From Vulcanimicrobiota bacterium (GTDB lineage: Bacteria > Vulcanimicrobiota > Vulcanimicrobiia > Vulcanimicrobiales > Vulcanimicrobiaceae), in contig CAVRQT010000001.1 of assembly GCA_963723515.1 (NCBI GenBank), forward strand, positions 32,001 to 96,000: a stretch of 64,000 nucleotides of DNA, given 5' to 3'. The notes beneath the pieces were generated by a model, which was given only the letters and a program-made list of their open reading frames with translations, searched no databases and was not told the DNA's origin. Position numbers and translations under genes: made by a program. Positions 38,030 to 61,967 of the stretch are shown here, in pieces; position 1 is the stretch's first letter, and each line of letters begins with the position of its first letter.

Positions 38030-38701
38030 CTACAGCTTGGTCACATGGAACAGCTGGAAGAACAGGCCGACTGAGAACGTTGCGAGCGCTGCGCCGGCGA
38101 CGACCTGCATGATCGTGTGCGCGCGCAAATAGACGCGCGCCCAACACACCATCGGAATCAACACCAAGAACGGCAACGGCTCGCGCCCGTACAGCAAACA
38201 GAGGACGACGAGGGGCGCAGTGATGCCGAGAGCATGGGTGCTGATCTTCCAATACCGGGTGATGTATTGGACGACGATCGTGCTGAGCGTGTAACCGGCA
38301 AGCGTCGCGATCAACAGACGCGGTGAGTGCATCAACCACAGCACGGCCGTTCCGGCGATATAAAAGATCACCACCGCTCCGAAGATACGCTCGCGTTCCA
38401 AGCGATTCGACATCTCGAGATCGGTGATGCGATCCGTCGAGTACATCCAGAAGATGAAGAGCATCGGCCCGATCGACGTGAAGAACGCGGTGAGAAACGC
38501 GAGCCACCAAAATGAAAGCGTGCTCGTGCTCGCCAGGGCATGAGCGAGGATCACGCAGAGTGCGAGCGCGCACAAGAACGGATTGAAGATGGTCGAGAGA
38601 ATCCGTGCTAGGTCGCGCCAGACATCACGCCGCTTGCGCAACGCGACCGGGGCTGCGGAGCTTGTCCTGAGCGAAGTCGAAGGGCCGCCTGTCCGCTCCA
38701 T
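38030..38701 (-). CDS. PAP2-like integral membrane protein with a repeat-derived N-terminal peptide
   Basis: SD GGGAGA before ATG 38701; WKISTH and WARVYLRAHT..QVVAG motifs. Confidence 0.75.
   Translation of the reverse strand: MERTGGPSTSLRTSSAAPVALRKRRDVWRDLARILSTIFNPFLCALALCVILAHALASTSTLSFWWLAFLTAFFTSIGPMLFIFWMYSTDRITDLEMSNRLERERIFGAVVIFYIAGTAVLWLMHSPRLLIATLAGYTLSTIVVQYITRYWKISTHALGITAPLVVLCLLYGREPLPFLVLIPMVCWARVYLRAHTIMQVVAGAALATFSVGLFFQLFHVTKL
38658..38686 (+). repeat. REP-like hairpin repeat inside the 5' end of the PAP2-like gene
   Basis: GAGCTTGTCCTGAGCGAAGTCGAAGGGCC; reads [10 protein letters not shown] on the minus strand. Confidence 0.85.
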
Positions 38702-38795
38702 TGCGGCGTCTCTCCCAATCGCGGCAGGGAAATCCTCGCATTCGAGGCCTTCGGGCAACGGACGCGCCGCCGCCTGCGTCGAACGAGGGCGGCCA

Positions 38796-40676
38796 ATGAT
38801 TCTCGAACGCATCAACCGCCCCGCCGACGTCAAGAAACTCTCTCGTCCCGAACTCGATGAACTAGCCGCCGAAATTCGCGAGCAACTCGTTTCGGTTTGC
38901 TCGCGCAACGGCGGCCATCTTGCACCGAACCTGGGCGTCGTTGAATTGACCCTTGCGTTGCATCGGGTTCTCAACTTGCCAAGCGACAGGCTCGTCTGGG
39001 ACGTGAGCCACCAAACCTACGTCCATAAGTTGCTCACCGGCCGGCGCGATCGTTTCTCGACGATCCGCAAAGGCGGCGGCCTCTCCGGGTTCGCGATGCG
39101 AAGCGAGTCGGAATACGATCCGTTCGGCGCGGGACATGCGTCCACAGGCGTCTCGTCGGCGCTCGGTATGGCAACGGCGCGCGATCTGACGCAACAGCAA
39201 CACGCAGTCGTCGCGGTGTTAGGCGACGGCGCGTTGACCGGCGGCCTGGCGTATGAAGCGCTCAATAACGCGGGGCAGCTGAAGACGAACTTCATCGTCA
39301 TCCTCAATGACAACGAGATGTCGATCGCGCCTAACGTCGGGTCGATTGCCTCATATCTCTCCGTCCTGCGCAGCAAGCCGATCTTCAACGCGGCGCGCGA
39401 GGCGACCAAGGACGTTCTCGACCACATCCCCTTCGGAGGCACCGCGCGCAAGGCGCTCTCAAGCGCGGAAGTCGGCGCGATCCGTTTCTTTGCGCCTTCC
39501 GAAAAGGCGGCGGTGATTTTCGAAGAGCTCGGATTCCGCTACATGGGGCCGCTCGACGGCCACAATCTGGACGTGTTGATCGATGCGCTGGAGACGGCGC
39601 GCAACATCGAAGGTCCCGTGCTGATTCACATTCGCACGATCAAAGGCAAAGGCTATGCCGTAGCCGAGTCGGACTCGCGCACGTTCCACGGCTGTCCGCC
39701 GTTCGAGATTCAAAATGGAACGATTGAGAAGAAGCCTGGTGCGCGCCCTACATTCGCCGATGTTTTCGGGGACGCGATGAACGTGGTTGCCGAACGCGAC
39801 TCGCGCGTTATCGGCATCACCGCCGCGATGCCGGACGGCACGAAGCTCTCAAAATTTGCGAAGCGTTTTCCGGATCGCTATTTCGACGTCGGCATCGCCG
39901 AAGCGCATGCGGTCTGCTTTGCGGCCGGCGCTGCGACCGCCGGACTCAAACCGGTCTGCGCGATTTACTCGACGTTCTTGCAGCGCGCGTACGACCAAGT
40001 CGTCCACGATGTTGTCGTTCAGAATTTGCCGGTCGTCTTCTGCATGGACCGCGCGGGTTTCGTCGGCGACGACGGTCCAACGCACATGGGGCTGTACGAT
40101 ATCGCCTACCTGCGCACGCTGCCGAACATGACGATCATGGCGCCGCGCGACGAAGATGAGCTTCTGCCGATGCTCGAGCACGCGCTTTCCCTCGACGCGC
40201 CGGCTGCGATTCGATATCCGCGCGGCAGCACCGCCGGCTCGCATCAGGAGCCGCATGCGCCGATCGTGCACGGCCGCGCCGAAGTGCTGCGTAAAGGAAG
40301 CGGCGTCGCCGTTCTTGCGCTCGGCAACACGGTTGAAACGGCGCTCGACGCCTACGATCTGTTGCCTGAGGACGGGCCGCGTCCGACGATCGTCAACGCG
40401 CGCTTCGCAAAGCCGCTCGATGAGCCGCTGCTGATCGAACTTGCCGGCGACCACGAGCGTTTTCTTACCTTAGAAGAACACTCGCTCGCGGGGGGCTTCG
40501 GTTCGGCGGTCGCGGAGTTCGTTTCGGATCACGGCCTTGGCATCTCGATCGAACGGATCGGCGTGCCGAACGTGCTCGTGCAGCACGATAGCCAGCCAAA
40601 ACAACGTGCCCAGTTCGGGCTGCAGGCCGAGAGCCTGGCAGCGCGGTTGGCGCTCAGGACGGAGTCCAAAGTTTGA
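38796..40676 (+). CDS. dxs: 1-deoxy-D-xylulose-5-phosphate synthase
   Basis: GGHLAPNLGVVELT; GHASTG; GDGALTGG..EALNN; NDNEMSI; DVGIAEAHAV; DGPTH. Confidence 0.97.
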   Translation: MILERINRPADVKKLSRPELDELAAEIREQLVSVCSRNGGHLAPNLGVVELTLALHRVLNLPSDRLVWDVSHQTYVHKLLTGRRDRFSTIRKGGGLSGFAMRSESEYDPFGAGHASTGVSSALGMATARDLTQQQHAVVAVLGDGALTGGLAYEALNNAGQLKTNFIVILNDNEMSIAPNVGSIASYLSVLRSKPIFNAAREATKDVLDHIPFGGTARKALSSAEVGAIRFFAPSEKAAVIFEELGFRYMGPLDGHNLDVLIDALETARNIEGPVLIHIRTIKGKGYAVAESDSRTFHGCPPFEIQNGTIEKKPGARPTFADVFGDAMNVVAERDSRVIGITAAMPDGTKLSKFAKRFPDRYFDVGIAEAHAVCFAAGAATAGLKPVCAIYSTFLQRAYDQVVHDVVVQNLPVVFCMDRAGFVGDDGPTHMGLYDIAYLRTLPNMTIMAPRDEDELLPMLEHALSLDAPAAIRYPRGSTAGSHQEPHAPIVHGRAEVLRKGSGVAVLALGNTVETALDAYDLLPEDGPRPTIVNARFAKPLDEPLLIELAGDHERFLTLEEHSLAGGFGSAVAEFVSDHGLGISIERIGVPNVLVQHDSQPKQRAQFGLQAESLAARLALRTESKV

Positions 40677-41017
40677 TCGATCTTCTCTTGGCGGCAACCT
40701 CAGCGCCGCTTCTAACGCCGGCGCCTATCGCGCCGAATCTTACGCCGACTCAAGTTCCGCATTCGTGGGTCGCGCAGCATTTGCCGTGGGCGACGCACGC
40801 GTTTGCGGGCCTCGCAATCATCTTTGCGCTCGCGTTGATCTTCTTGCTGGCGATTCAAACGACGAAGCAAGAGGGACTTTCGGGAACGATCGGCGGTCGC
40901 GTGGAGTCTGCATACCGCGGCCGGCTCGGCATGGAGGAAAACCTAAAGCGGTTGACCGGCTTTGTGGCGGTGTGCCTAGTCGTCTTCTGGGCGATCCTCT
41001 CGCTGACGGGAATCTAG
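40673..41017 (+). CDS. secG: Preprotein translocase subunit SecG
   Basis: TM-IQ..K.EGLSGTIGG-loop-L.RLT-TM pattern. Confidence 0.75.
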   Translation: MIDLLLAATSAPLLTPAPIAPNLTPTQVPHSWVAQHLPWATHAFAGLAIIFALALIFLLAIQTTKQEGLSGTIGGRVESAYRGRLGMEENLKRLTGFVAVCLVVFWAILSLTGI

Positions 41018-41047
41018 AGCGATAGTTTTCAAGCGACGCATCATTAT

Positions 41048-41178
41048 CTGTCACCCTGAGCCAGCCTGTGCTGAGCGGCGTCGAAGCATCGAAGTGCCAC
41101 AGATCATGCCTTCTGCGACGGGCAATCACTTTGATCGCGCAAGATAGCGGCTGATGCTTCGACGAGCTCAGCTGACAG
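41048..41178. repeat. REPIN-like inverted doublet of the hairpin repeat; left arm holds a nested second copy
   Basis: CTGTCACCCTGAGCCA[GCCTGTGCTGAGCGGCGTCGAAGCA]TCGAAG at 41048-41094 and inverted TGCTTCGACGAGCTCAGCTGACAG at 41155-41178. Confidence 0.85.
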
Positions 41179-41220
41179 GGAGCGGTCTGCGTCCGTCATT
41201 AGCAGCGGAGCGCCTTCTAA

Positions 41221-42279
41221 TTGGCACTCCTAGAAGTTAAGAATCTTCGCACGACGTTTTTGACCGAAGACGGCTTGGTGACCGCCGTTAACGGTCTCTC
41301 GTATGCGATCGACGCCGGTTCCACGCTTGGCATCGTCGGAGAATCGGGATCCGGCAAGTCCGTCAACGCGCTCTCGATCATGCGGTTGATCCAGCGGCCC
41401 GGCAAGATCGAAGCCGGCGAAGTGTATTTGAACGGCGAGAATCTCCTGAAGAAGAGCGAGAACGAGATGCGCCACATTCGCGGCAACGAGATCGCTATGA
41501 TCTTCCAGGACCCGATGACCTCGCTCAACCCGGTGCTCACGATCGGCGAACAGATCTCAGAGGCGATTCAATTGCATCTCGGCTACAACCGCAAAGAGGC
41601 GCTTGCGAAGACGATCGACATGCTGCGGCTCGTCCGCATTCCCGCTCCGGAGAAGCGCGTGAGAGATTATCCGCACCAATTTTCCGGCGGCATGCGGCAG
41701 CGCGTCATGATCGCGATGTCACTCTCCTGCGAGCCGAAAGTTTTGATCGCCGACGAGCCGACGACGGCACTCGACGTCACGATTCAGGCGCAGATTCTGG
41801 AATTGATGAATGAGATGCAGACTCGCACCGGCACAGCGATCATCCTCATCACGCACGACCTGGGAATCGTCGCTGAAGTCTGCGAGAACGTTCTGGTAAT
41901 GTACGGCGGCAACATGGTCGAGTATGGCACGGCGGAACAGATCTTCGATCATCCGAAGATGCCGTACACGCAAGGCCTGCTCAGCTCGTTGCCGCGACTC
42001 GATGCGACCAAACCGGAACGCCTCGTGCCGATCAAAGGGCAGCCACCCAATTTGCTGCGCTTGCCGCCGGGTTGTGCATTCGCTCCGCGATGCGCCTTCC
42101 GGATGCCGATCTGCGATGAGCCCGTGCCGCTGTACGATTTCCAAGACGGCCATGTCGCGCGCTGCTACCTCTATGACGATCGCGCCGTCGGACAGCGGCC
42201 GATCGAGGTTGAGACCGCTCCCCGCGTTTCGCTCGAACAAGTCGCGGCAACGCCGCAAGAATTGGCGCAGAAGGCCTGA
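41221..42279 (+). CDS. oppD: Oligopeptide/dipeptide ABC transporter ATPase (OppD/DppD)
   Basis: [48 protein letters not shown]. Confidence 0.9.
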
Positions 42280-43342
42280 TGGCGATCGCAGAAGCTGCGC
42301 CGCAAACGACGGTCGGCGAAGAGCTGCTCGGCGTCAAAGACCTTTACAAGTACTTCCCGATTCACGCCGGGCTGATGTCGCGGCACGTCGGCGACGTCAA
42401 GGCGGTTGACGGCGTCGATTTTTCGATTGCGCACGGTGAGACGCTGGGACTCGTCGGAGAGTCGGGCTCCGGCAAGACGACGATTGGGCGCGTCATTTTG
42501 CGGCTGCTGCCTGCAACGCGGCGGCGAGGTCTTATTCGAAGGTCAGAATGTCTTGGCGCTCAGCCGCAACGAGGTCCGGAAACTGCGCAAAGAGATGCAG
42601 ATCATCTTCCAAGATCCGTTCGCGTCGCTCAACCCGCGGATGACGGTGGGCGATATCGTCGGCGAGCCGCTAAAAATTCACGGAATCGCCTCCGGGCGTG
42701 CCGGCGATGAGCGCACGCAAGAACTCCTGCGGCTCGTCGGCTTGCAGCCGTACCACGCGAATCGTTATCCGCACGAATTTTCCGGCGGTCAACGGCAGCG
42801 TATCGGCATCGCACGGGCGCTCGCGGTCGATCCGAAATTCATCGTCTGCGATGAGCCCGTTTCCGCGCTCGACGTCTCGATTCAAGCGCAGGTCATCAAC
42901 TCTGCTCGAAGATTTGCAGGCCAAACTCCGCTTGACGTATCTCTTCATCGCGCACGATCTCTCGGTCGTGCGGCACATCTCGACCCGAGTCGCCGTCATG
43001 TATGTCGGCAAGCTCATGGAGCTGGCCGATCGCGATTCGCTCTACGAAAATCCGCTGCACCCGTACACGCAGGCGTTGCTTTCCGCCATTCCGATTCCCG
43101 ATCCGCGCGTCGAACGGCGCCGTAAACGGATTATCTTGATGGGCGATATCCCTTCGCCCGTGAATCCGCCGTCCGGCTGCCGTTTTCACACGCGCTGCCC
43201 CATTGCGTTCGATCGCTGCCGCGTGGAAATTCCGCCGTTCAATGAGTACAAACCGGGCCATTTTGCGGCGTGCCACTGGGTAGAAGAACACGGGGGCCAA
43301 GCGCCCGATTTAGCGGGCGACGCTGCAGCGAGCGCGGCCTAA
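42279..43342 (+). CDS. oppF: Oligopeptide/dipeptide ABC transporter ATPase (OppF/DppF); frameshifts near 42520 and 42900
   Basis: [53 protein letters not shown] across three frames. Confidence 0.88.
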
Positions 43343-43348
43343 AAAAAT

Positions 43349-43379
43349 GAAAAACCGGCCAGTTTATGGCCGGTTTTTC
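43349..43379. terminator. Bidirectional intrinsic terminator
   Basis: GAAAAACCGGCCA-GTTTA-TGGCCGGTTTTTC perfect 13-bp stem between convergent genes. Confidence 0.85.
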
Positions 43380-43399
43380 GCTGCTGTGCGGCGCTAGCG

Positions 43400-43786
43400 T
43401 TAGCTTTTCTTGCGGCCGCCCTTTTTGCGACGCCCGCCTTTACGGCCGGACGATTTCTTACGGCCACCGCTCGATTTCTTGCGGCCACCGCTCGATTTCT
43501 TACGGCCGCCTTTGCGCCCGCCCGATGATTTCTTACGGCCGCTTGATTTCTTGCGTCCGCTCGATTTCTTGCGTCCACCTTTGCGGCCGCCCGTTGATTT
43601 CTTACGCCCGCCGGTTGACTTCTTACGGCTGCCGGTTGATTTCTTACGGCCGCCGGTTGATTTCTTGCGGCCACCGCCGCCTTTTCTGCTACCCGAAGAT
43701 TTGCGACGGCCCGATGATTTTCTGCGTCCGCGACCGGACGTTTCCATGTCCATCGTTTCGCCGTTTTGCATCATGTCGGAATCCAT
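43400..43786 (-). CDS. Protamine/histone-H1-like basic protein (GGRKKS repeats), 128 aa
   Basis: SD GAGAGGA 6 nt before ATG 43786; after a short acidic leader it is almost only G/R/K/S/T; own terminator. Confidence 0.8.
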   Translation of the reverse strand: MDSDMMQNGETMDMETSGRGRRKSSGRRKSSGSRKGGGGRKKSTGGRKKSTGSRKKSTGGRKKSTGGRKGGRKKSSGRKKSSGRKKSSGGRKGGRKKSSGGRKKSSGGRKKSSGRKGGRRKKGGRKKS

Positions 43787-43927
43787 CGATGTCCTCTCTC
43801 GTCCCTTCGGACGAACATGATTGATATTGGGCGCGCCGATGTTCGGCGCTTGTGCGTGCATCGTACATTTTTTTGCAAGATATTGCAAATGATGAACGCG
43901 CGCGGGACGCGCGTCCGACACTCGAAA

Positions 43928-43958
43928 TTGACGGCGCCCTTGACGCTCGGTATATACT
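43928..43958 (+). promoter_or_regulatory. sigma70-type topA promoter TTGACG-N19-TATACT, 7 nt before the GTG start
   Basis: Near-consensus hexamers; no SD before GTG 43966. Confidence 0.55.
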
Positions 43959-43965
43959 TAGCCCC

Positions 43966-46083
43966 GTGAAAAAGCCCCTGATCATCGTTGAGTCGCCGAC
44001 GAAAGCGCGTACGATCAAGAAGTTCTTGCCGCCGCGCTACACCGTTAAGGCGTCAGTGGGCCATGTCCGCGACCTTCCAAAGAGCACGCTGGGCGTCGAT
44101 ATCGAGCATGATTTCGAGCCGCGATACCTGACGATTAAAGGTAAGGGCGAGGTCATCAAAGACCTCAAGGGTGCGCTGAAAACAGCCGATGACGTGTACC
44201 TCGCGACCGATCCCGACCGCGAAGGTGAAGCGATCGCCTGGCATCTCGCGGAACTTCTGAAACTGCACGATCCGAAGCGGATCGAGCTGCACGAAATCAC
44301 CAAAGAAGCGGCCATGGCCGCGCTGCGTGCGCCGCATCGCATCGATCACAATCGCGTTAATGCGCAGCAGGCGCGGCGCATCCTCGACCGCATCGTGGGC
44401 TATAAGATCTCGCCGCTGCTCTGGTCGAAAATCCGTGGGGGTCTCTCAGCCGGACGCGTTCAGTCGGTGGCGGTCAAATTGATCGTCGAACGCGAGCGCG
44501 AGATCGAGCGTTTCGTCCCCCAAGAATATTGGTCGATTACCGCCTTTCTCTCGCCGCAAGATGACGACGGCGCACTTTTCCCCGCCGACTTGATCCTCGT
44601 TGACGGCGAGAAGATTCAAATTTCGAACGGCGGTCAATCTTCCGCAATCGTTTCGGACCTCGAAGGCGCGCGCTACGTTGTAGAAACCGTCAAACGGCGA
44701 GAGGCACGGCGCAATGCACCGCCGCCGTTCACGACCTCAACGCTGCAGCAAGAAGCGTCCAAGCGTTTAAAGCTGCGCGTTCGGCGCACAATGCAACTGG
44801 CGCAAGCGCTCTATGAGGGCATCGATCTCGGCGCTGAGGGGACGCAGGGCTTAATCACCTATATGCGCACCGATTCGACGCGCATCTCCGATTCGGCGCG
44901 GGAAGCGGCGCGCAACTACATCGTTCAGAAGTACGGCGCGCAGTATCACAGCGGACGGCGAACATCGCGTTCGTGAAGGTGCCCAAGACGCGCACGAAGC
45001 GCTGCGGCCGACATCCATTGAGCGCACGCCCGACACGCTGGCGAACGTGCTCAAGCGAGACGAGCTTCGCCTTTACACGTTAATCTGGCAGCGTTTCGTC
45101 GCCTCACAAATGTCGGCGGCGGTCTTCGATCAGACGACCGTCGATATTACGGCGCAACGTCCGCAAGCGCAGCACAAATACACATTTCGTGCGACCGGCA
45201 GCGTAATGAAGTTCGCGGGGTTCACGGAAGTCGTATAAGGAATAAGGAAGACGATGGGAGCAAGGCCGCGACTCACGGTCGCACGCTCTTGCCTGAAATG
45301 GCGGACGCACAGGCCCTGAGCTTTCACCGGCTCGAGTCGAAACAGCACTTCACCGAGCCGCCGCCGCGCTACACCGAAGCCTCGCTCGTCAAGGCACTCG
45401 AAGACAACGGCATTGGGCGTCCTTCGACGTACAGCACGATCGTCGAAACGATTCAGGCGCGCCAATACGTCACCCAAGAAGACCGCCGCTTCCATCCGAC
45501 GGAGATCGGTATTGCCGTCAACGATCTGCTCGCAGAGCATTTCCCCGACGTCGTCGATCTCGACTTCACCGCTTCAATGGAAAGCGATTTGGATCGCGTC
45601 GAGGACGGCCAAGAAGATTGGGTCTCGCTGCTCAAGCGTTTCTACGGACCCTTCAAAGCGGAGCTCGATCAAGCGCAACGCATGTTGCCGAAGGTTGAAT
45701 TCCGCGATGAGCCGACCGATGAAGTCTGTCCGAATTGCGGCCGCCCGATGGTGATCAAATCGGGGCGCTTCGGCCGCTTCGTCTCGTGCACCGGATATCC
45801 CGAATGCAAGACGACGCATCCCTTGATCGTCGACACCGGCGTGCGCTGCCCGGTCGACGGCGGAATCATCGCCGAACGCCGTTCGCGCAAAGGCCGGGTG
45901 TTCTACGGTTGCGTCAACTATCCGAAATGTGACTTCGTTCTCTGGGATCGTCCGCTGCCACAGGCGTGTCCGGTCTGTGGCGCGCTGGTTGTCGAAAAGA
46001 CGAAGCGCGGCGGCGTGACGCAAATCGAATGCAGCGCCGATCGCACGCATGAAGTCGGACCGGCGACGGCAGCGGTATCGTGA
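43966..46083 (+). CDS. topA: DNA topoisomerase I (frame breaks near 44955 and 45240, probably errors)
   Basis: LIIVESPTKA; SVGHVRDL; ATDPDREGEAI; SAGRVQS; ITYMRTDS; QDAHEALRPT; GIGRPSTY; C-terminal Zn ribbons. Confidence 0.95.
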
Positions 46084-47477
46084 GCGCGTGCATTACGGTC
46101 ATCGGCGGCGGTCTGGCCGGCTGCGAAGCGGCGTGGCAGGCAGCACGCAGCGGTGCGGATGTCGAGCTGATAGAAATGCGGCCGGCGCGGCGAGGTCCAG
46201 CGCATCATACTGCGGATCTTGCGGAGCTGGTTTGCAGCAATAGCTTTCGGGGCGCCGCGCTCGAGAATGCGGTCGGCCTCCTCAAAGAAGAGCTTGTGCA
46301 CCTCGATTCCATTATCATCAGCAGCGCGCGGGAATGTGCTGTCCCGGCCGGCGGCGCACTGGCGGTCGATCGAACACGCTTCTCGCAGTTCGTGCAAACG
46401 CGATTGCTGGAAGAACCGCGCGTGACCATCCGCCGAGAAGAAGCCACTCGTATTCCACGGGATCGGCCAGCGATCGTTGCCTGCGGGCCGCTTCCGAGCG
46501 AAGCGCTGATCGACGATATCGATGCGCTGCTGCAAGAAGCCGGTGCGCGCTCGCGGCTCCACTATTATGACGCCGCTTCACCGATTGTCGCCGCTGATTC
46601 GATCGACACGACGAAGATGTATGCGAAGGCGCGCTATGATAAAGGCAACGGCGACGACTATCTGAACATCCCGCTCGACGAAACGCAATACCGCGACTTC
46701 CTCGCCGACTTGCGATCTTTGCCGCAGCACGAACCCAAAGAATTTGAATGCGATGCTTCGGGTGGGCGGCGACCGTTCTTCGAGGGGTGCCTCCCGATCG
46801 AAGAGATGGCGTCTCGAGGCGACGACGTTCTCCGATTCGGTCCGTTAAAGCCGGTCGGTCTGCGCGATCCGCGCACCGGAAAAACGCCGTATGCCGTCGT
46901 TCAATTGCGCAAGGAGAACGCACAAGCAACCGCCTTGAATTTGGTCGGCTTTCAAACGCGCATGACGTGGCCGGCACAAAGGGAGGCATTTTGCAAACTG
47001 CCGGGGCTGCACGATGCGGAGTGGCTGCGGCTCGGCGTGATGCATCGCAACACGTTCATCGATTCGCCGCGGCTGCTAGATGAAGAGTTGCGATTGCGTG
47101 GCCCTTCGACAGGCTCAGGACAAGCGCTGCATTTTGCCGGCCAAATCACCGGCGCCGAAGGCTACGTCGAAGCCGCCGCATGCGGCGCAATCGCGGGAAT
47201 CGCCGCTGCGCGACGCGCGTTGCACCTGCCGGCGGTGCGCATTCCACGCGAGACCGCACTCGGCGCGGTGATTGCTCATTTGCAGAACGACGTCACGCCG
47301 GATTTTCAGCCCTCGAACGTGACGTGGGGCGACTTTCCGTCGCTCGATGGCGCGCCTAAGGACAAGAAGGCACGCCGTCGGCAAATGGCGCAACGCGCGC
47401 TCGAATCGCTTGTGCATTTCCGCAAGGCAATCGGGCGCGAGACGGCCGGTGGAACCTTGTTGGCACGCGTCGGGTAA
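46080..47477 (+). CDS. trmFO: Folate-dependent tRNA m5U54 methyltransferase TrmFO
   Basis: [51 protein letters not shown]; topA-trmFO-hslVU synteny. Confidence 0.96.
47100..47125 (-). repeat. REP-like hairpin repeat in frame within trmFO
   Basis: GGCCCTTCGACAGGCTCAGGACAAGC encodes GPSTGSGQA just before LHFAGQITG. Confidence 0.85.
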
Positions 47478-47488
47478 GTAGTCAAGGT

Positions 47489-49998: not shown

Positions 49999-50016
49999 TC
50001 CGCGGCGCGTAAGCAG

Positions 50017-52912: not shown

Positions 52913-53085
52913 TTGAGTCGTCGTGGTTCAGCCTCGTGATGATTTTTCGTCGAGTTCGAGGCGCGAGGACGGACGCAATGCCGCAGCGCATTGTGGCCGC
53001 CGCAGTAACGATGAAATCGACAAAAAGCGTCCGAGGATCAACCTCGTGCGATTCAATCGGAGGCCCTTACACTAGAGGCCCTCTA
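52900..53085. mobile_element. MITE-like long imperfect inverted repeat (~170 bp)
   Basis: Arms AGGGCCTCTGATTGAGTCG (52902-52920) and CGATTCAATCGGAGGCCCT (53049-53067) pair over ~55 bp; extra end copy AGAGGCCCTCT at 53074-53084. Confidence 0.6.
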
Positions 53086-53087
53086 TC

Positions 53088-53519
53088 GTGACCTTCACCG
53101 CGCACATGCGCTTGGGATCTGTCGGCGCGCTCGTCGCGATGGCGGCGTTCGCCGTGGCGGCGTTTCGCACGCGGCGTCCATCCGCTGTTCTCGGAGTCGG
53201 CAGCGCTTCCGACATGACGATGAAAATCGAACTCGAGGTGATCGAGCGGGACGAGCGGCGGCGCGTCGAAGGGAGCTGTCCCTTTGTCGTGGGGCGGTCG
53301 TCAGACGCGGATCTGCTCCTCTGGGATCCGGAGGTCAGCCGGCGCCACGCACGGTTTGAAAATGATGGCACAACGGTCTTCGTTAGCGATCTGCATAGCA
53401 GCAACGGAACGTTCCTTAATGGGCGTGGCCTCACGGAAAGCGTTGAAGTGCGTCCAGGCGATCACATTGATGTCGGCACCGTGCGCTTAACGTTCATCGG
53501 AAGTCAGCCGTGCAGCTGA
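53088..53519 (+). CDS. FhaB-like membrane-anchored FHA protein
   Basis: Hydrophobic N-terminus; VGR, SRRHA, SSNGT. Confidence 0.85.
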   Translation: MTFTAHMRLGSVGALVAMAAFAVAAFRTRRPSAVLGVGSASDMTMKIELEVIERDERRRVEGSCPFVVGRSSDADLLLWDPEVSRRHARFENDGTTVFVSDLHSSNGTFLNGRGLTESVEVRPGDHIDVGTVRLTFIGSQPCS

Positions 53520-54325
53520 CAATCAGGGGCCAGCGCCGCCGCTACCTGCAGTTGACGCTCGGATCGCAAACGCGCGCGTATGCGGTCTGCAATGGTTTCG
53601 GAACGATCGACGGTCAGCCGATTGAAGAGGCAACCTTGGGTGAGCTCCAGGCGACGCTGCAACGCCGATCGCGCGGCGCGCGCTTTGCCTACCAAATTGC
53701 GAAGCCCAAGGCGATGGCAGCCTTCCTCATCGCTGTCGTTTCGCACTTGAATGCGTACTTGTTCAAACGGAGTGCTGCACACGAAGATTACGTTACCAGC
53801 GGCGCCTCACTAACCTTGATCCTGATCTGCAAAGAACGAGCCTATCTTGCGCATGTCGGAACAACGGCGGCGTACGTCGTCCGTAGCGGCTACGTCGTGG
53901 CGTTAACGAAAGATGATTCGTGCTCGTTCGATGACGCTTCGACGGGCTCAGCGCAGGCTGATCAGCCGGCGCGCATTTTAACGCGCGCGCTGGGCATCGG
54001 TTCGCAGATGCAAATGAGCGTCTGCAGTTTTCGCGTCGCCTCAGGCGACACGCTGGTGCTGGCCAGCAAACGGCTCGCCACAGTCGAGGACCGCCGGGCG
54101 CTAGCAAGATGGATCATGCACCATGACGGTTCGTCGGCTGTCCCTTTGAGGACGCTTGTGCTGAGCGGCGTCGAAGCATCGAAGGGCGGCGAACACACCG
54201 TGGCCGCGGTGCCGATTCGGATGGCGCCGCTTGTTCCGGCGACGGTCGCATCTTCTGCTCGTTCGCCGCTCTGGTACGCGATGGTCGCGCTGCTCTTGAG
54301 TTTGCTTCTGATTATCTCCGCTTGA
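53510..54325 (+). CDS. PP2C/PstP-like protein with degenerate active site
   Basis: AVCNGFG, GASLT, AHVGT, LTKDD, LTRALG, GDTLVLAS follow PP2C order; C-terminal TM; pstP position between fhaB and rodA. Confidence 0.75.
   Translation: MQLTIRGQRRRYLQLTLGSQTRAYAVCNGFGTIDGQPIEEATLGELQATLQRRSRGARFAYQIAKPKAMAAFLIAVVSHLNAYLFKRSAAHEDYVTSGASLTLILICKERAYLAHVGTTAAYVVRSGYVVALTKDDSCSFDDASTGSAQADQPARILTRALGIGSQMQMSVCSFRVASGDTLVLASKRLATVEDRRALARWIMHHDGSSAVPLRTLVLSGVEASKGGEHTVAAVPIRMAPLVPATVASSARSPLWYAMVALLLSLLLIISA
53936..53958 (-). repeat. REP-like hairpin repeat in frame in the PP2C-like gene (ASTGSAQA)
   Basis: GCTTCGACGGGCTCAGCGCAGGC. Confidence 0.8.
54138..54186 (+). repeat. Nested REP-like repeat in frame in the PP2C-like gene (LVLSGVEASKG)
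   Basis: 54157-54184 is identical over 28 nt to 41067-41094. Confidence 0.85.
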
Positions 54326-55560
54326 TCGCGCTCTGGATACGCCGCTTAACGCCGCTTCTTGCGGCGTTTGCCATTGCGGCGATCCTCTTGAGCATGGCAC
54401 CGGCGGAAAATCTCGGCTCGGTCTGGGGCTTGCTTCTCTTAGCTGCGCTCGCGCTCGCCTGGGTGATCTTTCAACCGGCGGGCGCCATACGCGACGATTT
54501 TTTGCCGGCCAGCGCGGTCTTGATTTCCGCGGTTGGCTTATCGATGATCGCGCGGCTCTCCGGCGAGCTCGCGCGCAAGCAAGAGCTCTGGTTATTCGTT
54601 TCGCTGATGCTCGTGCTGATGCTCGGACCGGCATTTTCGCGCTTTCGCCGGCTCGCCGCATTCAAATATCTCTGGGTGATCGGGTCGATTGTCTTGTTCG
54701 GGCTGCTCGCAGTTTTCGGACAAGAAGTCAACGGTGCGCGACTCTGGATCCGCATCGGCAGCGTTCAATACGAGCCGATCGAGCTGATCAAACTCTTCAT
54801 CGTCTTTTTCCTTGCCGCGTATCTTGCGGAAACGGCCGATGTGATTGCCAACGCGCGGCCATGGTCGGTGCGTGCGAACCTCAAATACCTTGGGCCGCTC
54901 TTCATCGGCTGGGGCGCCTCAATGGCGATTTTAGTCTTGCAGCACGATCTCGGTATGGCCGTGTTGCTGCTCGTGACGTTCATTGCGGTGCTCTATGTTG
55001 CGACCCGTCGCATCGATTTGATCCTGGGGAGCTTGGCGACGTTCGGTGTCGTTGCGGCATGGGCCGCACATCACTTCTCCTACGTGCAAACGCGCATCGC
55101 GGTGTGGCGCAATCCGTTCGGGGATCCGCTCGGCGCCGGATTTCAATCGAGTCAGGGCTACTACTCGCTCGCTGCGGGCGGCTTGCTTGGAACGGGCTAC
55201 CGCTTAGGCCACCCCGGATTCATCCCCAACGTCGCGACCGACTACGTGTATGCAGCGTGGAGCGAAGAGTTCGGGCTCGTCGGCGCGGTCGTGCTTCTCT
55301 TGCTCTACTTAGCGATCGTTTGGCGTGCGCTCACGATAGCGCGCGCACAGCCGGACCTCTATACGCGTCTGCTGGCAGTCGGGCTCGCAGCGATCCTGGG
55401 CTTTCAAGTGCTGATCATCGTCGGCGGAGTGATCGGCCTCTTTCCGTTGACCGGCATTACCTTACCGTTCATGTCCTACGGCGGAAGCTCGCTCGTTGCA
55501 AACTTCCTCTTAATAGCATTGGTTTGGGCAATCAGCTCGAGAAGCTTTGCGGCGAAATAG
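54322..55560 (+). CDS. rodA: SEDS-family peptidoglycan polymerase (RodA/FtsW)
   Basis: NGARLWI..G...P.E..K; DLG; TDYVYA...EEFG; P.TGITLPFMSYGGSS. Confidence 0.88.
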   Translation: MIALWIRRLTPLLAAFAIAAILLSMAPAENLGSVWGLLLLAALALAWVIFQPAGAIRDDFLPASAVLISAVGLSMIARLSGELARKQELWLFVSLMLVLMLGPAFSRFRRLAAFKYLWVIGSIVLFGLLAVFGQEVNGARLWIRIGSVQYEPIELIKLFIVFFLAAYLAETADVIANARPWSVRANLKYLGPLFIGWGASMAILVLQHDLGMAVLLLVTFIAVLYVATRRIDLILGSLATFGVVAAWAAHHFSYVQTRIAVWRNPFGDPLGAGFQSSQGYYSLAAGGLLGTGYRLGHPGFIPNVATDYVYAAWSEEFGLVGAVVLLLLYLAIVWRALTIARAQPDLYTRLLAVGLAAILGFQVLIIVGGVIGLFPLTGITLPFMSYGGSSLVANFLLIALVWAISSRSFAAK

Positions 55561-55617
55561 GGACGGGCCCGCAACCCGTATTCAGGTATCGCTGTCATAA
55601 TTTAAGACAAAAATGCG

Positions 55618-56472
55618 TTGCTTACTGTGATGTCGTCTACATTACGCCGATTTTCGGCCGTCTTTTTCATCGCGGCTGCTTGCGTTGCCGCATCGGGCGC
55701 TAACGCCGCACAGTCGAAAGGCGACGCGCTGCTTCAGAAGATCAGGGTCGTCTTTCGATCGCATCGGCCGCCGCCGCCCTACATTACCTACACGCTCCAT
55801 CGCGAATCGATCACCGAGCAAGGCTACACGGATTACACCGCAACCTACACCTACCACATCTGGTGCCGGAGCTCCGATCGTGCCGCGCTGGGTCGCAAGG
55901 TGTTCCGGGATGAAGCGCGCGGGGACTTAGAGTTTCTGCGGCCGGAATTCAACCAGGATCGCGATCCCGGACCGCCTACCGCCGACGTCTTCGAGCGCGC
56001 GCCGGTCCATCCGCAGCCCGTTGAAGTTGCTCCGACGCCGGAGCCCGTTGCCGCTCCGGCCGTCATCGGTTCCGTCACGGCATACGGCGAGCTCGAGTAT
56101 CATGTGACGGCGGTGCAGACTGAGGGCGACCTTCTCCATTTGAGCGTCGTGCCGTTCCGCGATCCCGACCGGAATCGGCTGCGTGAGATTTACGTTGACA
56201 AGAAGACGCTGGAGCTCCGCAAATTGATCGCGACCGACAAGCTCTTCATCGGAAACGCTGAAATTCACCCGGTGCGATTTACGATCACGATGGCGATGCA
56301 GGATGGGCGACCGCTCGTAACCGCTATTCACGCTGAAACGACCGACGATTACAAGGGCGATAGCCATATCACGGACTACACGTTCACGGACATCAAATTC
56401 CCGAGCTCACTGCCGGATTGGTATTTCAACGCGCACTCCTATGCGATGCATACCGGCGAAGCGCCTTTGTAA
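55618..56472 (+). CDS. Hypothetical secreted protein, tandem paralog 1
   Basis: Signal peptide; strong similarity to the next ORF. Confidence 0.8.
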   Translation: MLTVMSSTLRRFSAVFFIAAACVAASGANAAQSKGDALLQKIRVVFRSHRPPPPYITYTLHRESITEQGYTDYTATYTYHIWCRSSDRAALGRKVFRDEARGDLEFLRPEFNQDRDPGPPTADVFERAPVHPQPVEVAPTPEPVAAPAVIGSVTAYGELEYHVTAVQTEGDLLHLSVVPFRDPDRNRLREIYVDKKTLELRKLIATDKLFIGNAEIHPVRFTITMAMQDGRPLVTAIHAETTDDYKGDSHITDYTFTDIKFPSSLPDWYFNAHSYAMHTGEAPL

Positions 56473-57298
56473 TTTTCTCGCACTGCTTGCGGCGTTCGTT
56501 TTGAGCGCCGCGCCGTTGCCTTCGAACGCCGGTCTTTCGAAAGGTGACGAGCTGCTGCAGAAGATCCGCGCAGTCTTTCGTGCGCACCGTCCTCCGCCGC
56601 CGTACATCACGTACACGCTCGTGCGCGCGCAAGATACTGCGCAAGGGTATCCCGACTTCGAGTGGAGCTACACCTACCATATCTGGTGTCGCACATCCGA
56701 CCTGGCGGCGCTCGGCCGAAAAGTGTACCGCGGCGACGCGCGCGGCCCATTAGAATTCTTACGTCCGGAGTTCAATCAGGCACGCGACCCTGGTCCTCCG
56801 ACTGCAGATGTCTTCGAACGCGCGCCGGCACATCCACAATCGATTGACGTCGTGCCCACCCCTGAACCGAGCGGCATACCGGCGACGATCGGATCGGTTA
56901 CGAGCTATGGTGAGCTCGAATACCATGTAACCGCCGTCCGTACTGAAGGCGATCTTTTGCACTTGAGTTTGCGGCCCATCAGAGATCCGGACCGCAACCG
57001 GCTACGGGAAATCTACGCTGAGAGAACGAGCTTCGAGCTGAAGAAACTGATTGCGACGGATAAACTGTTCATCATGCCGTTTGACGAGGTCCATCCGCAG
57101 CTCTACACGATAACGATGGGAACGGTCGAAGGACGCCCCGTCGTCACGGCCATTCACGGCGTTACGACGGACGATTACAATGACGACGGCCGGGAAGTAG
57201 ACTACACGTTCAAAGATATCAAGTTTCCGAAGTCGCTGCCCGATTGGTATTTCGACGCGCATGTCTACGCGATGCACTCGAACGAAGCGCCGTTATGA
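56441..57298 (+). CDS. Hypothetical secreted protein, tandem paralog 2
   Basis: Signal peptide; shares HRPPPPYITYTL, DPGPPTADVFERAP, RDPDRNRLREIY, LPDWYF with paralog 1. Confidence 0.8.
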   Translation: MRCIPAKRLCNFLALLAAFVLSAAPLPSNAGLSKGDELLQKIRAVFRAHRPPPPYITYTLVRAQDTAQGYPDFEWSYTYHIWCRTSDLAALGRKVYRGDARGPLEFLRPEFNQARDPGPPTADVFERAPAHPQSIDVVPTPEPSGIPATIGSVTSYGELEYHVTAVRTEGDLLHLSLRPIRDPDRNRLREIYAERTSFELKKLIATDKLFIMPFDEVHPQLYTITMGTVEGRPVVTAIHGVTTDDYNDDGREVDYTFKDIKFPKSLPDWYFDAHVYAMHSNEAPL

Positions 57299-57868
57299 TT
57301 TCAAAAGCTCGATCGCGAAGAGCTCCTTGATGTAGTCGCTCATGCCGGCGTCGATGCGGCGCAGGCGCTCGCGCGTCGCATTGGGCCAGCAAGACGCCGG
57401 ATCGTTTGCTCCGACGTATGCCCGCATCGACTCGGCAAAGTATTCATCGATACCGGTCGCGGCATATGGCGTTACGAAATCGCGCGCGGTTTCGAAGAGC
57501 GAACGCAGATCCGGATCGACGCACGATCGGTAGATGCCGCTGCCCAGCGCACAATCCAACGCATGTCCAAACTCGTGCGCCACCGTCATCGGGCTGCGCG
57601 AACGAAGATAGACGGTTCGTTCTTCAACGACGAACAGACCGGCGGGGGGCGACGGCCAGCCGTCGATCGACGGGCACAATCGCCGTAATGCGCTGGACGC
57701 TTCTGCGTACGATTGCGAGCGGCGTAACGGAACGATGCGAATGCCGGCGCGGGCGGCGAAGTCGAGCGCCGGTTTACCGAAGAGCGCAAGCGTTCGGCCA
57801 ACGGCAGCACGGGACGACGGATGCGCATGAAGCAGCAGGGCGCCGAGCGGCGAATTATGGACACACAC
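57293..57868 (-). CDS. Zn metallopeptidase-like protein (lethal-factor/Pro-Pro endopeptidase-type motif spacing)
   Basis: HEFGHALD followed by YA....EYFAES. Confidence 0.7.
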   Translation of the reverse strand: MCVHNSPLGALLLHAHPSSRAAVGRTLALFGKPALDFAARAGIRIVPLRRSQSYAEASSALRRLCPSIDGWPSPPAGLFVVEERTVYLRSRSPMTVAHEFGHALDCALGSGIYRSCVDPDLRSLFETARDFVTPYAATGIDEYFAESMRAYVGANDPASCWPNATRERLRRIDAGMSDYIKELFAIELLKS

Positions 57869-57957
57869 CGCCCCACTCTCCGCGCCGCATATTGCAAGCG
57901 AATGTCGTCCGCGTGTCCGTTGGATGAACGCGCGCCGTTCGCGGAAGGGAGGACGTC

Positions 57958-59781
57958 ATGGCTCCGTATCAAGCGCCTCTGCGTGACATGCAGTTTGCGT
58001 TGCGCGAGCTTGCCGGTCTCGATCAGATCGTTGCGCTGCCGGAGTTTGAAGACAGTGGCGACGTCGTTGATGCGATCCTCGAGGAGGCGGCGACCTTTGC
58101 GAGCGAGGTGCTCGATCCGCTCAACCAATCCGGCGATAAGGAAGGGTGCACGTGGAACGCCGGTGAGGTAACGACCCCCAGCGGCTTCAAAGATGCGTAT
58201 GCGCGCTTCGCTCAATCGGGTTGGATTGGACTGCCCGTCCCATCCGAATACGGCGGACAAGGTTTACCGCAGTTGCTGCTCGGTCCGACGCTCGAGATGT
58301 GGAACGCCGCCAACGTCGGCTTCGCGAACGGACCGCTGCTCAATCAAGGCGCGATCGAAGCGATCGAGTTGGCCGGCTCCTCGCAACAGAAGGAACGCTA
58401 CATTCCGAAGCTTGTTTCGGGCGCATGGATGGGCACGATGTGTTTAACGGAGCCGCAAGCCGGGTCTGATTTGGCCGCGGTGCGCACCAAAGCGGTTCCG
58501 CAAAACGACCACTATCTGATCAGTGGTCAGAAGATCTTCATCACCTTCGGCGAGCACGACCTGGCGGAGAACATCGTGCATTTGGTGCTCGCGCGCCTGC
58601 CCGACGCGCCGGAAGGCACAAAGGGCATCTCGATGTTCATCGTCCCGAAATACGTCCCGAACGCCGATGGTTCGCTTGGAGAGCGCAACGACGTCTATTG
58701 CGCCGGCATCGAGCATAAGATGGGACTCAACGCGAATCCGACGTGCACGCTCAACTACGGGGAGCGCAAGGGCGGCGCCGTCGGCTATCTTGTCGGCGAG
58801 CCTAATCGCGGGCTGGAGTACATGTTCGTCATGATGAACGCGGCACGTTTTTCGGTCGGCGTTCAAGGCTACGCGATCGCGGACCGAGCGTACCAGCGCG
58901 CGCTCGAGTATGCCAAAGAACGCGTGCAAAGCCGCGACGTCGCATCAAGCAGTTATCAGGCGGTTCGCATTATCGAACATCCGGACGTGCGTCGAATGTT
59001 GATGACGATGAAAGCCCAAGTTGAGGCGATGCGCGCGCTCTCATACGTCGCAGCGGCGGCGCTCGATCTTTCGAACCGTCACCCCGACGCAGCGGTGCGC
59101 AAAGAGCGTAAAGCGTTCGTCGAGTTGATGATTCCGGTCGTCAAAGGTTGGTGCACGGAAACGGCCCAAGAAGTCACCTCAACGGCTCTGCAAGTTTTCG
59201 GCGGCATGGGCTACATCGAAGAGACGGGTGTCGCGCAGCAGTATCGTGACGTTCGGATCACAACAATCTATGAAGGCACGACGGGCATTCAGGCGCTCGA
59301 TCTGGTCGGCAGAAAATTGCTCCGCGACATGGGTGGAACGGCGACCGCGGTCATCGCAGAGATGAAGGCCTTCGCCGAAGCGCTCGATGGCACGCACGAC
59401 GCGGATCTCAAAGCGATTGCAACGTCCGTTCGCAACGGTGTCGGCATTTTGGCGGAAGTTTCGCAATGGATCGGCATGAATGCGATGGGGGATTTGCGCA
59501 AAGCCTTCGCCTGCTCCGTGCCCTATCTGCGGCTTTGGGGAATCGTGGCCGGGGGCTGGCAGATGGCGCGCGCGGCTCAGATTGCACGATCAAAGATCGA
59601 TGCGAACGATCCGGAGAGCGATTTTTATCGCGCGAAGCTGACGACCGCACGTTTTTACGCCGACCACATCTTAACGCAAGCCGCTTCTTTGCGTGCGCAA
59701 ATCGTCGACGGCTCAGCGGACGTCATGGCGATGCCTGAAGCGCACTTCGACCTGGATCGTACGACGGCCGCGCTCGTCTAA
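57958..59781 (+). CDS. Acyl-CoA dehydrogenase (long form)
   Basis: EYGGQG; GTMCLTEPQAGSDL; GQKIFIT; EHKMG; QVFGGMG; IYEGTTGIQALDL. Confidence 0.95.
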   Translation: MAPYQAPLRDMQFALRELAGLDQIVALPEFEDSGDVVDAILEEAATFASEVLDPLNQSGDKEGCTWNAGEVTTPSGFKDAYARFAQSGWIGLPVPSEYGGQGLPQLLLGPTLEMWNAANVGFANGPLLNQGAIEAIELAGSSQQKERYIPKLVSGAWMGTMCLTEPQAGSDLAAVRTKAVPQNDHYLISGQKIFITFGEHDLAENIVHLVLARLPDAPEGTKGISMFIVPKYVPNADGSLGERNDVYCAGIEHKMGLNANPTCTLNYGERKGGAVGYLVGEPNRGLEYMFVMMNAARFSVGVQGYAIADRAYQRALEYAKERVQSRDVASSSYQAVRIIEHPDVRRMLMTMKAQVEAMRALSYVAAAALDLSNRHPDAAVRKERKAFVELMIPVVKGWCTETAQEVTSTALQVFGGMGYIEETGVAQQYRDVRITTIYEGTTGIQALDLVGRKLLRDMGGTATAVIAEMKAFAEALDGTHDADLKAIATSVRNGVGILAEVSQWIGMNAMGDLRKAFACSVPYLRLWGIVAGGWQMARAAQIARSKIDANDPESDFYRAKLTTARFYADHILTQAASLRAQIVDGSADVMAMPEAHFDLDRTTAALV

Positions 59782-59792
59782 GCCAAGGTAAC

Positions 59793-61967
59793 GTGCCCAA
59801 AATAGCGACTCGCGACCACGACGGCGTTCGAGTGCTGACACTCGACAATCCGCCGGTCAATGCATTGTCGTTTGCATTCTCAGCGATGTTGCTCGATGCG
59901 GTGAAGGCGGCCGAAGAGGATACGGCCGTTCGCGCCGTCGTCTTTGCCGGCGCAAATGGAATGTTTAGCGGCGGCGCGGACGTCAACGATTTCAACGCTC
60001 CGATCACGCCTGAGACGACTACGGTCCGGGATGTTATTGCGGCGATCGAGCTCGGACGAAAAACCTACATTGCTGCGATTGAAGGCACTGCTCTCGGCGG
60101 CGCGCTGGAAGTCGCGCTCGCCTGCGATTACCGGATCGCCGCACAGAATGCGAAGCTTGGCTTGCCGGAGATAAAACTTGGATTGATTCCGGGCGCAGGC
60201 GGAACGCAGCGCTTGCCGCGCTTGATCGGCGCACAACCCGCATTGCAGATGATGCTCAAAGGCGAGCGCGTCGATGCGGATGAGGCCCTGAGGCGCGGAA
60301 TCCTCGATGAAGTCGTTGCGCAAGACGTTGTCGATGCCGGAAGTGCGCTAGCGCGCCGCAATGTCGATGCGCATGCGCACGCAAAGCGACGCATCTCAGA
60401 GCTTCCCTCGGCGTTGCTCGGGACAGGCTCCGTTGAAATCGGCGCCGGCCCTTCGACATCGCTCAGGACAAGCGTCGCGGCCTTCGCATTGCCGTTCGTC
60501 GTCGCCGAGGCGCATAAGATGCTGCCGTCCGAAGAGCGTGGCGGTTTTGCGGCTCACAAACTCGTGGATGCGGTTCAGGCGTCGTTCGAGTTGCCGTTCC
60601 CGCGCGGCCTCGCGCGCGAGTTTCGGCTGTTCGAAGAATGCGCGCGCTCGCCGCAGTCGTTCGCACTGCGCCACCTTTTCTTCGCAGAACGGGAGCTTTC
60701 GAAGATCCCAGATTTAGAACCGGCGGAGGCTTTGCAAATCAAGACCGCCGGTGTCCTCGGTGGCGGCACGATGGGAACCGGAATTGCAATCACCTTTGCT
60801 AATGCCGGCATTCCGGTTACGGTCGTTGAGCCTGCCGAAGAACAGATCGCGCGCGCCAAGCAGATGATCTTCGGGATGTTCATGCATCAAGTGCAGCGCG
60901 GCCGGCTGACGCAAGAGGAGGCGTGGAATCGAGGCCGGACGATCGTCTTTACCGGCGATCGTGCCGCTTTGCGCGAATGCGACCTCGTGATCGAGGCCGT
61001 CTTTGAAAATCTCGACCTCAAGAAGCACGTCTTTGCGGAACTCGACGGCCTGCTTGAGCCCAATGCAATCCTCGCAACGAACACGTCGACGCTAGACATT
61101 GACGCGATGGCGGCCGTCACGAAGCGTCCGGATCGATTCTTGGGACTGCATTTCTTTGCGCCGGCGAATATCATGAAGCTGCTGGAAATCGTCCGTGGGG
61201 GCGCGACCTCGGCGCAGACGTTGACGACCGCATTGAAATTGAGCAAGACACTGCGCAAGATCGGCGTCGTCTCGGCGAACGCCTTCGGTTTCATCGGCAA
61301 TCGAATGCTCTTCGATTACGCGCGCGAGGCGGTGCGGCTCGCGGAAGAAGGCGTCGCACCGTATCGCGTGGATGCGGTCATCAGGGATTTCGGCTTTGCG
61401 ATGGGACCCTTCGCGATGTTCGACCTCTCCGGAATCGACGTTTTCCGGTACATACAACAGGCGTCGGGGCAACAGTTGGGGCGAACGGCGATTGTCGACC
61501 GGCTTTACGACGAAAAGCGGCTCGGTCAAAAAGCTGGACGCGGGTTCTATAAGTACGCGGCAGGCAGCCGCGATCCGGAACGGGATGACGACGTGGAGCG
61601 CATCTTCTCTGAGGAGGCACGCGCACTGGGCATTGCGGTGCGCGATCCGAGCGACGAAGAGATCACCAAGCGTTTGGTGTACGCGCTAATCAATCGCGGC
61701 GCCGAGTTGCTGCGCGAGGGAGTCGCGCTGCGACCTGGCGACATCGACATCGTGTACATCTATGGTTACGGCTTTCCGCCACATCACGGTGGCCCGATGT
61801 GGTACGCGGATGAAGTCGGCGTGCGCGACGTCTATGATGATGTCGTGCGTTTCGAACGTGACTTCGGAGAGCATTGGGCGCCTTCGCCGCTCTTGGCCGA
61901 GATCGCGCAATCGGGCGGCACGCTTGATACCCACGCGCCCACACGCAGAGAGCTTGCCCATGCGTGA
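59793..61967 (+). CDS. Bifunctional enoyl-CoA hydratase/3-hydroxyacyl-CoA dehydrogenase
   Basis: [52 protein letters not shown]. Confidence 0.95.
60404..60473 (-). repeat. Two tandem REP-like repeats (one decayed, one intact at 60447-60473) in frame in the fadB-like gene
   Basis: CCCTCGGCGTTGCTCGGGACAGGC and GGCCCTTCGACATCGCTCAGGACAAGC (GPSTSLRTS). Confidence 0.8.

Follow-up and report, generated by a model that had tools for sequence, protein, structure and literature searches.

The closest described systems to the repeat reported here are the CGTC-tagged repetitive extragenic palindromic (REP) families (Di Nocera et al. 2013, PMC3733652) and the hairpins that flank the gene of the GIY-YIG nuclease Ssn (Chenal et al. 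2025, PMC11893778). The spread of CGTC-type repeats has been an open question since 2013, and a mobile origin is no more than suggested in the accessible text of the Ssn paper of 2025. The stretch considered here, termed the window, is 64,000 nucleotides (nt) of contig CAVRQT010000001.1 from a Vulcanimicrobiota bacterium. A preliminary description of the window noted a hairpin repeat of about 25 nt, found in frame inside genes, and took it for a minimal, non-autonomous element by which enzyme loops gain short peptides. This reading is supported by turnover of the repeat at the genus level and by the location of one insert, in TrmFO, in a low-confidence loop of the structural model. The repeat family is real and is mostly intergenic. 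The interpretation favored here, with fair but not high confidence, is that of a hairpin repeat which turns over between genomes, lies in frame in a few genes, is likely read as single-stranded DNA (ssDNA) and likely spreads with the help of a GIY-YIG nuclease. The most useful result is the group of partner nucleases with its tandem-GA hairpin, rather than the coding inserts.

The strict pattern of the repeat is CTGAGC-N2-4-GTCGAAG, and the reversed pattern serves as the control. The strict pattern has 7 matches in the window, where 0.02 are expected. The genome-wide scan that the preliminary description proposed gives 162 copies in the 2.11-Mb source genome (termed G000, an assembly that is 88% complete) and none with the reversed pattern. 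In addition, all 11 of the positions first listed in the window carry the motif or the host half of the motif. A profile made from the strict copies, with a cut-off score of 14, finds 238 matches in the genome and four in the reversed genome. Genes were called with a home-made caller (83% coding), and by these calls, in which the PAP2-like site discussed below fell outside its gene, 208 of the 238 profile matches (~87%) are intergenic, 18 are at most 45 codons from a gene end and 12 are interior. Gene-interior copies are about 5% of the family, and three of the 12 interior matches are low-scoring and may be due to chance. Since 208 of 238 matches are outside genes, the family is REP-like with a coding minority, and its first portrayal as a coding family set apart from ordinary REPs is not supported. 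Nor are the coding inserts themselves a departure from REPs, as single in-frame inserts of 8–9 amino acids (aa) from CGTC REPs have already been published for several genera, according to the accessible text of PMC3733652. Across 36 genomes of the same family the strict counts range from 0 to 466, and 17 of the 36 have at least 15 strict copies.

All copies share the layout NN-CTGAGC-loop-GTCGAAG-N'N', and two forms can be distinguished. The A form starts with TGTCA and occurs in intergenic inverted pairs and arrays; xTGTCA heads are present in 99 strict A-form copies. The commonest tails of the A form are CCACCG (11), CCGCGA (6), TGACTT (6) and CAACCG (5), as compared with the short CCA-like tail of the CGTC REPs. 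The B form is 24–26 nt long, starts with (A)GCYTG instead of the TGTC tag, and is found in the loops of A copies and in genes. Covariation is seen at both variable pairs of the stem. Among 128 distinct copies, 102 have a Watson-Crick inner pair, versus a mean of 42 and a maximum of 63 after shuffling, and 97 have a Watson-Crick outer pair, versus a mean of 73 and a maximum of 88; because the copies are related, the comparison with shuffled pairs is not a probability. G.T pairs number 27 and A.C pairs 8 in these copies. The TGAG...CGAA core is kept in 214 of 221 copies, and the stem is interrupted by GA/GA. A pyrimidine-GA-purine context in DNA leads to tandem sheared G.A pairs (PMC10085684, accessible part). 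The nucleotide sequence therefore suggests a hairpin with tandem sheared G.A pairs that would be stable on one strand only.

The two forms are frequently combined. TCGAAG follows directly after 38 of 87 B matches, and 37 of these 38 also have a host half upstream. The presence of TCGAAG after, and of a host half before, shows that the B copy sits inside the loop of another copy. Nested B copies add a net 24, 25 or 27 nt (14 cases measurable by pattern). At C3:26233, an A pair is common to G000 and to a genome of the same genus that is ~80% identical (G001), and two nested B units are present in G000 only. Of 49 solo B copies, 10 are in gene interiors, versus 1 of 151 A copies (Fisher p = 3e-6); at score 25 the comparable numbers are 6/29 and 0/123. 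Insertion of B at the apex of existing hairpins seemed plausible by eye but is not supported, as the mean stem is 3.5 versus 3.0 at 12 empty sites (p = 0.08); a flank-pairing test for apex insertion gave p = 0.0015, but this value is inflated by repeated composite families. Two other dispersed repeats hold a B copy at a fixed position, i.e. at C2:631459, C2:636878, C3:287091 and C3:760877 in one case and at C3:282206, C3:30527 and C4:1174 in the other. One of the two occurs in G001 without the B copy.

A repeat-flanked GIY-YIG gene, which the preliminary description suggested be looked for, is present on another contig. The genome has three matches to PF01541, and one of these is a stand-alone gene of 100 aa at G000:C3:290985-291287 on the minus strand (53.7 bits). 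Repeat arrays that face inward are located on both sides of this gene. Close relatives of the partner protein (E-value below 1e-20) are found in 15 of 60 genomes searched, and all are in the same family. Residues Y7, Y17, R27 and E65 do not vary among 12 partners, and by numbering, not by alignment, Y7, Y17 and E65 may correspond to the catalytic Y6, Y17 and E64 of SsnA. The published partner loci number 13 (two unpublished loci were dropped), and 12 of them display a tandem-GA hairpin, identified by pattern and in some cases with a long loop, at most 500 nt from the gene; in nine it is on both sides. None of the UPF0213-type loci has such a hairpin within 500 nt. With a broad pattern, same-family genomes that have the partner show a median of 166 copies (71–535, n = 14 including G000), and those that do not have it show a median of 14 (3–76, n = 19).

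Metagenomic relatives of the partner form a set that is independent of the genome set. In the best 80 of 556 relatives, the hairpin is present in 80 of 80 loci and two or more hairpins are present in 71, versus 13 and 4 with the reversed control. The hairpin heads vary among partner loci L261–L340 (CCTCA, GTTCG, TGTCA and CGTCA) and the YGAG...CGAR core is constant; these loci are a ready set for a study of protein-DNA co-variation. Viral contigs have the hairpin at 4 of 53 loci versus 5 in the control and give no sign of phage carriage. A scan of named genomes with the single partner protein detected only four distant loci, and the named alphaproteobacterial records that show the pairing of hairpin and nuclease are only two (L129 and L130). 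Rfam has five weak matches in three partner loci, all far below the gathering score, and ESM Atlas and PDB searches produced only generic GIY-YIG and UPF0213 matches. Broken copies of the partner gene in two genomes (L115 and L116, in G010 and G016) are still flanked by hairpins, and both genomes have intact copies elsewhere.

The repeat sites differ between genomes of the same genus. The G000 copies were merged to 125 sites, and the two flanks served to anchor 43 of these in the part of G001 that was covered; 29 are empty in G001 and 14 are shared. In the reverse comparison, 16 of 29 G001 sites are empty in G000. A constant target-site duplication, which together with fixed ends would mark a MITE of a DDE insertion sequence, was not seen at these sites, where net lengths vary from 15 to 25 nt and the comparison genome is ~80% identical. 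A fixed TCGA target in genes is not established; by eye 3 of 11 solo-B empty sites show it versus an 11% background, a count that is subject to alignment bias.

A mechanism can be proposed in which the nuclease would be the mobilizing enzyme. Only one strand would fold, with tandem sheared G.A pairs in its core, and the nuclease would bind the folded hairpin and nick ssDNA in the way that SsnA nicks at its own hairpin. Repair of the nick would then copy a B unit in, often by way of a few matching bases (TCGAAG or CGNAGC), with the target giving the 3′ end of the unit. A broader form of the proposal is that a widespread second GIY-YIG group reads the sheared tandem-G.A hairpin and drives a 24–26-nt hairpin, the smallest kind of mobile unit, without an HUH or DDE transposase. 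Such a unit would use nick-primed copying, helped by short stretches of matching bases, to enter genes as well as the loops of its own relatives, and would give about a tenth of the new loop insertions in host proteins. This broader form is put forward tentatively and is rather doubtful.

Several observations weigh against spread by the nuclease. The proposed hairpin was not recovered in context by ViennaRNA with DNA parameters. ViennaRNA under-scores sheared G.A pairs. The broad pattern was written after the partner flanks had been seen, and kin among the genomes are not independent. Five same-family genomes without a detected partner still have 41–76 copies, and two of these are 95–96% complete. 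Matching bases are clear at the TrmFO and aminotransferase sites but absent at several others, 37% of random points have a TCG no more than 6 nt away, and the junctions are blurred because G001 is only ~80% identical. One of the coding sites, the first in the PP2C-like gene, shows no length change relative to the closest relative. GIY-YIG enzymes hydrolyze DNA and are not known to have a strand-joining step. In the accessible text of PMC11893778, what SsnA is shown to do is to lower transformation, rather than to move its repeat.

An alternative is that the nuclease recognizes the hairpin but is only a restriction-like check on incoming ssDNA, and that the repeats spread by host recombination, gene conversion or template switching, with the nuclease playing no part in their movement. 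A transformation check is the only in vivo role shown for SsnA in the accessible part of that paper (PMC11893778), ordinary repair would fit both the variable net lengths and the bases that match at some junctions, and some partner-less genomes retain 41–76 copies. However, genomes with the partner have about ten times as many copies, new copies arise at single-copy sites that are unrelated and share little homology, and the partner gene is placed between inward-facing arrays in the manner of an element. This alternative is considered unlikely, although it deserves serious attention, and spread with the help of the nuclease is preferred.

The hairpins could also be moved, as in REPINs, by an HUH transposase (RAYT or IS200/IS605 TnpA) that was lost or is absent from the assembly. 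The 5′-tagged single-strand hairpin and its occurrence as inverted pairs and in arrays do resemble REPINs, and the assembly is 88% complete. The search for a RAYT or IS200 TnpA gene, also suggested in the preliminary description, was run on the genome and none was found, i.e. G000 has no match to PF01797 or a Y1 transposase; the relatives were not searched for RAYT. The repeats have no GTAG tag, and they cluster on the GIY-YIG gene instead. Movement by an HUH enzyme is considered improbable.

Six in-frame coding sites in four genes of the window were reported at the outset. Comparison with relatives shows that four are net insertions, i.e. two in FadB (+8 aa each), one in TrmFO (+5 aa) and one in the PAP2-like protein (+8 aa), and that the two sites in the PP2C-like gene are not clear insertions. 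The fadB gene (positions 59793..61967, plus strand) encodes a FadB/FadJ-like alpha subunit of fatty-acid oxidation that scores below the equivalog cut-offs. A decayed B copy at 60405..60428 (minus strand) is a clean insertion of PSALLGTG and a second B copy at 60450..60473 (minus strand) is a clean insertion of PSTSLRTS. Both 8-aa inserts are absent in 11 of 11 relatives, which are the first 11 loci among 20 relatives with a match. The two lie within 45 nt, and one DNA sequencing run (share 0.06) did not bridge them; RNA runs were looked for as well and none is listed.

The trmFO gene is at 46080..47477 on the plus strand (NCBIfam NF003739 and TIGR00137, above cut-off) and has a B copy at 47102..47126 (minus strand) that is read as PSTGSGQA. 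The peptide was initially noted at its full 8 aa, but the net gain is 15 nt or +5 aa, not +8, versus 28 of 28 relatives (one unpublished locus was left out). The empty trmFO site in G001 already has TCGAAG, thus 24 nt replace 9. The insert (residues 342–349) is between two strands in the structural model, where its predicted local distance difference test (pLDDT) score as a block is 63, versus 91 and 86 beside it. It is predicted to form part of a flexible loop just ahead of the FAGQ strand.

The PAP2-like membrane protein gene (38030..38701, minus strand) contains a B copy at 38660..38683 (plus strand), which is read on the minus strand as PSTSLRTS in the N-terminal tail. It has a net +24 nt versus G001, or 8 more codons ahead of the first conserved residues, provided that the start is the ATG at 38701; this start is inferred from a matching GTG in G001, and other relatives are unalignable there.

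The fourth gene (53510..54325, plus strand) encodes a degenerate PP2C-like protein. The B copy at its first site (53935..53959, minus strand) is read as ASTGSAQA in a variable loop. The closest relative, L077, is 47% identical and has the same length at this site but no clear motif. Equal length in a relative without the motif is what the preliminary description itself named as refuting its claim, and for this site that is the outcome. In the best register, 14 of 24 bases match L077 (by eye); ~11 aa of the loop are missing in nine other relatives, and three have long loops. The site represents an old insert that has since decayed, or else an overwrite. The second site (54138..54186, plus strand) is a decayed A host with a nested B copy (54154–54178), read as ...LVLSGVEASKG. 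This composite copy is in a poorly conserved tail and adds 17 aa versus L077.

Coding inserts are also found elsewhere in the genome and in a relative. In a class-III aminotransferase gene the gain is 7 aa versus 5 of 5 relatives, and in two relatives the target matches the 3′ end of the unit in 7 of 8 bases. The copy at C3:940144 adds 8 aa versus G001. In the topA of a relative, G036 (L010:2803-2880), a loop that varies in length holds a fresh B copy in frame, PSTSSGQA. Among 866 orthologue pairs of G000 and G001, drawn from 120 of the 230 G001 contigs, 5 of 43 in-frame insertions or deletions of at least 3 aa carry the repeat; three are clear and two are decayed. The net gains in gene interiors are 15, 21 or 24 nt. 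Single units outside gene interiors have net gains of 17–24 nt, often not a multiple of three, which fits selection on the reading frame. At C2:129711, close to the end of a gene, a B insertion of 23 nt puts the sequence out of frame and creates a new stop codon versus G001.

The length of the insertion would be imprecise, and selection would retain only multiples of three in tolerant loops; on this proposal the peptides are neutral passengers. A different explanation is that the coding copies are kept for a function, with the enzyme or its mRNA being tuned by the peptide or by a hairpin in the RNA. The 14 of 43 sites shared within the genus and the two hits in FadB at such close range may be cited in its favor. 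The host genes are unrelated, however, several frames and both strands are used, and the inserts are lineage-specific and decaying at the amino acid level, e.g. PSALLGTG. A retained function is judged very improbable, and the peptides are more probably passengers of a spreading repeat.

Three intergenic features of the window complete the list. A solo B copy (1484..1508, plus strand, profile score 29.9) is between a radical-SAM/UPF0004 gene and mutS, the flanking genes being assigned by Pfam. An A host at 41048..41094 (plus strand) with a nested B copy (41064–41088) is between secG and an oligopeptide ABC ATPase gene. An A-like copy at 41155..41177 (minus strand), one base short, forms an inverted pair with this composite. 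A further decayed copy was considered in the topA of the window (QRPQAQHK, ~45150) and rejected, since its profile score is -4.8 and the loop is of equal length in G001 and five other relatives.

The topA sequence (43852–46083) is in three frames with single-base breaks near 44950 and 45235; its relatives are intact and this is probably an assembly error. A second oligopeptide ABC ATPase gene (42279–43342) is likewise split over three frames. These single-base breaks are the one argument for an origin of the repeats in chance matches or assembly artefacts, which can be dismissed for practical purposes, as controls of 0–4 versus 162–238 matches refute chance, the motif is abundant (at least 15 strict copies) in 17 of 36 same-family genomes and a relative has its own in-frame copy in topA.

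Other sequences in the window are repetitive or duplicated. A 761-aa open reading frame at 18687–20972 has no Pfam match and contains tandem repeats of 30, 57, 18, 21 and 27 nt with Tyr/Pro-rich units, e.g. GYNPY. An array of 21-nt repeats at 43366–43824 is open on both strands. Two neighboring paralogous genes of ~285 aa at 55618–57298 encode secreted-looking proteins, the first without a Pfam match.

The repeat and its partner offer a cheap test system that consists of a single protein of 100 aa, a substrate of 25 nt for which a clear structure is predicted (tandem G.A on one strand), and pairs of filled and empty sites within a genus. They also point to a candidate group of single-strand nucleases missed by the published SRM pattern, which matters for tool discovery. 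With respect to protein evolution, the 5 of 43 in-frame changes between two congeners provide a rough figure for the contribution of the repeat. For annotation, PSTGSGQA, PSTSLRTS and similar peptides are to be seen as repeat-derived and not as functional motifs. A literature search, in which subscription journals were mostly uncovered, found no report of a tandem-GA hairpin paired with a GIY-YIG nuclease or of the insert peptides, no relevant follow-up to the Ssn work and nothing on the present lineage.

The repeat can be compared with four known systems. With the Rickettsia palindromic element RPE-1 it shares the translation of palindromic DNA in frame within unrelated proteins. RPE-1 is ~150 bp long. 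It differs from the present repeat, of which only ~5% of copies are in gene interiors, by its greater length (accessible text of PMC3733652). The REPIN/RAYT system is similar in that its short hairpins are paired and bracket a single-copy partner gene, and in its vertical persistence with turnover. Unlike its GTAG REPs, however, the heads here are TGTCA or GCYTG, the partner is a GIY-YIG hydrolase and no Y1/HUH transposase was found in G000.

The CGTC-tagged REP families 1–4, which include RPE-4 and RPE-6 (Di Nocera et al. 2013, PMC3733652), are closer. As far as the accessible text describes them, they have a TGTC/CGTC tag, as does the A form, and a short tail; they occur in pairs and clusters, are mostly intergenic, have no RAYT or tyrosine transposase, and show single in-frame inserts of 8–9 aa in many enzymes. 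They differ, when compared by the text and not by the consensus figure, in a continuous stem of 8–9 bp with a loop of 4–5 nt. A stem interrupted by GA is of a type that the authors, in the same text, say could have been missed. The peptide words PSTG, LSLSK and ELVE are in none of the four supplements of that paper.

The Ssn nuclease with its NTS/SRM hairpins (Chenal et al. 2025, PMC11893778; CDD cd10448) is the system that includes a comparable protein. By the accessible text, both have a stand-alone GIY-YIG gene of ~100 aa flanked by oriented hairpins, a repeat with a YGTC-like 5′ tag in tens to hundreds of copies mostly outside genes, and a copy number tied to the presence of the gene. The Ssn system is further defined by site-specific cutting of ssDNA 5′ of the hairpin. 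Unlike Ssn, the stem here carries an invariant tandem GA. The SRM pattern gives 9 matches in the genome versus 10 in the reversed control, none on a strict copy, and matches 0 of the best 80 of 556 metagenomic partner loci; it matched five other GIY-YIG loci, thus the pattern itself works. The partner has 37–39% identity to SRM-flanked proteins, 31–39% to UPF0213/YazA-type proteins and 43–57% within its own group; the SRM-flanked proteins are thus no closer to it than the housekeeping UPF0213 type. In the tree, the five SRM-flanked proteins are a separate long branch (99) of unresolved placement, and a single clade for the partner group is not rejected (approximately unbiased test, p-AU = 0.41). 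As the SRM-flanked branch is not placed, the partner is not filed as Ssn. The tag-less short form, the nesting, and coding inserts as a feature are not described in the accessible text of the Ssn paper (PMC11893778). If it is driven by the nuclease, the spread of the repeat would make it a variant of the nuclease-hairpin system described in 2025.

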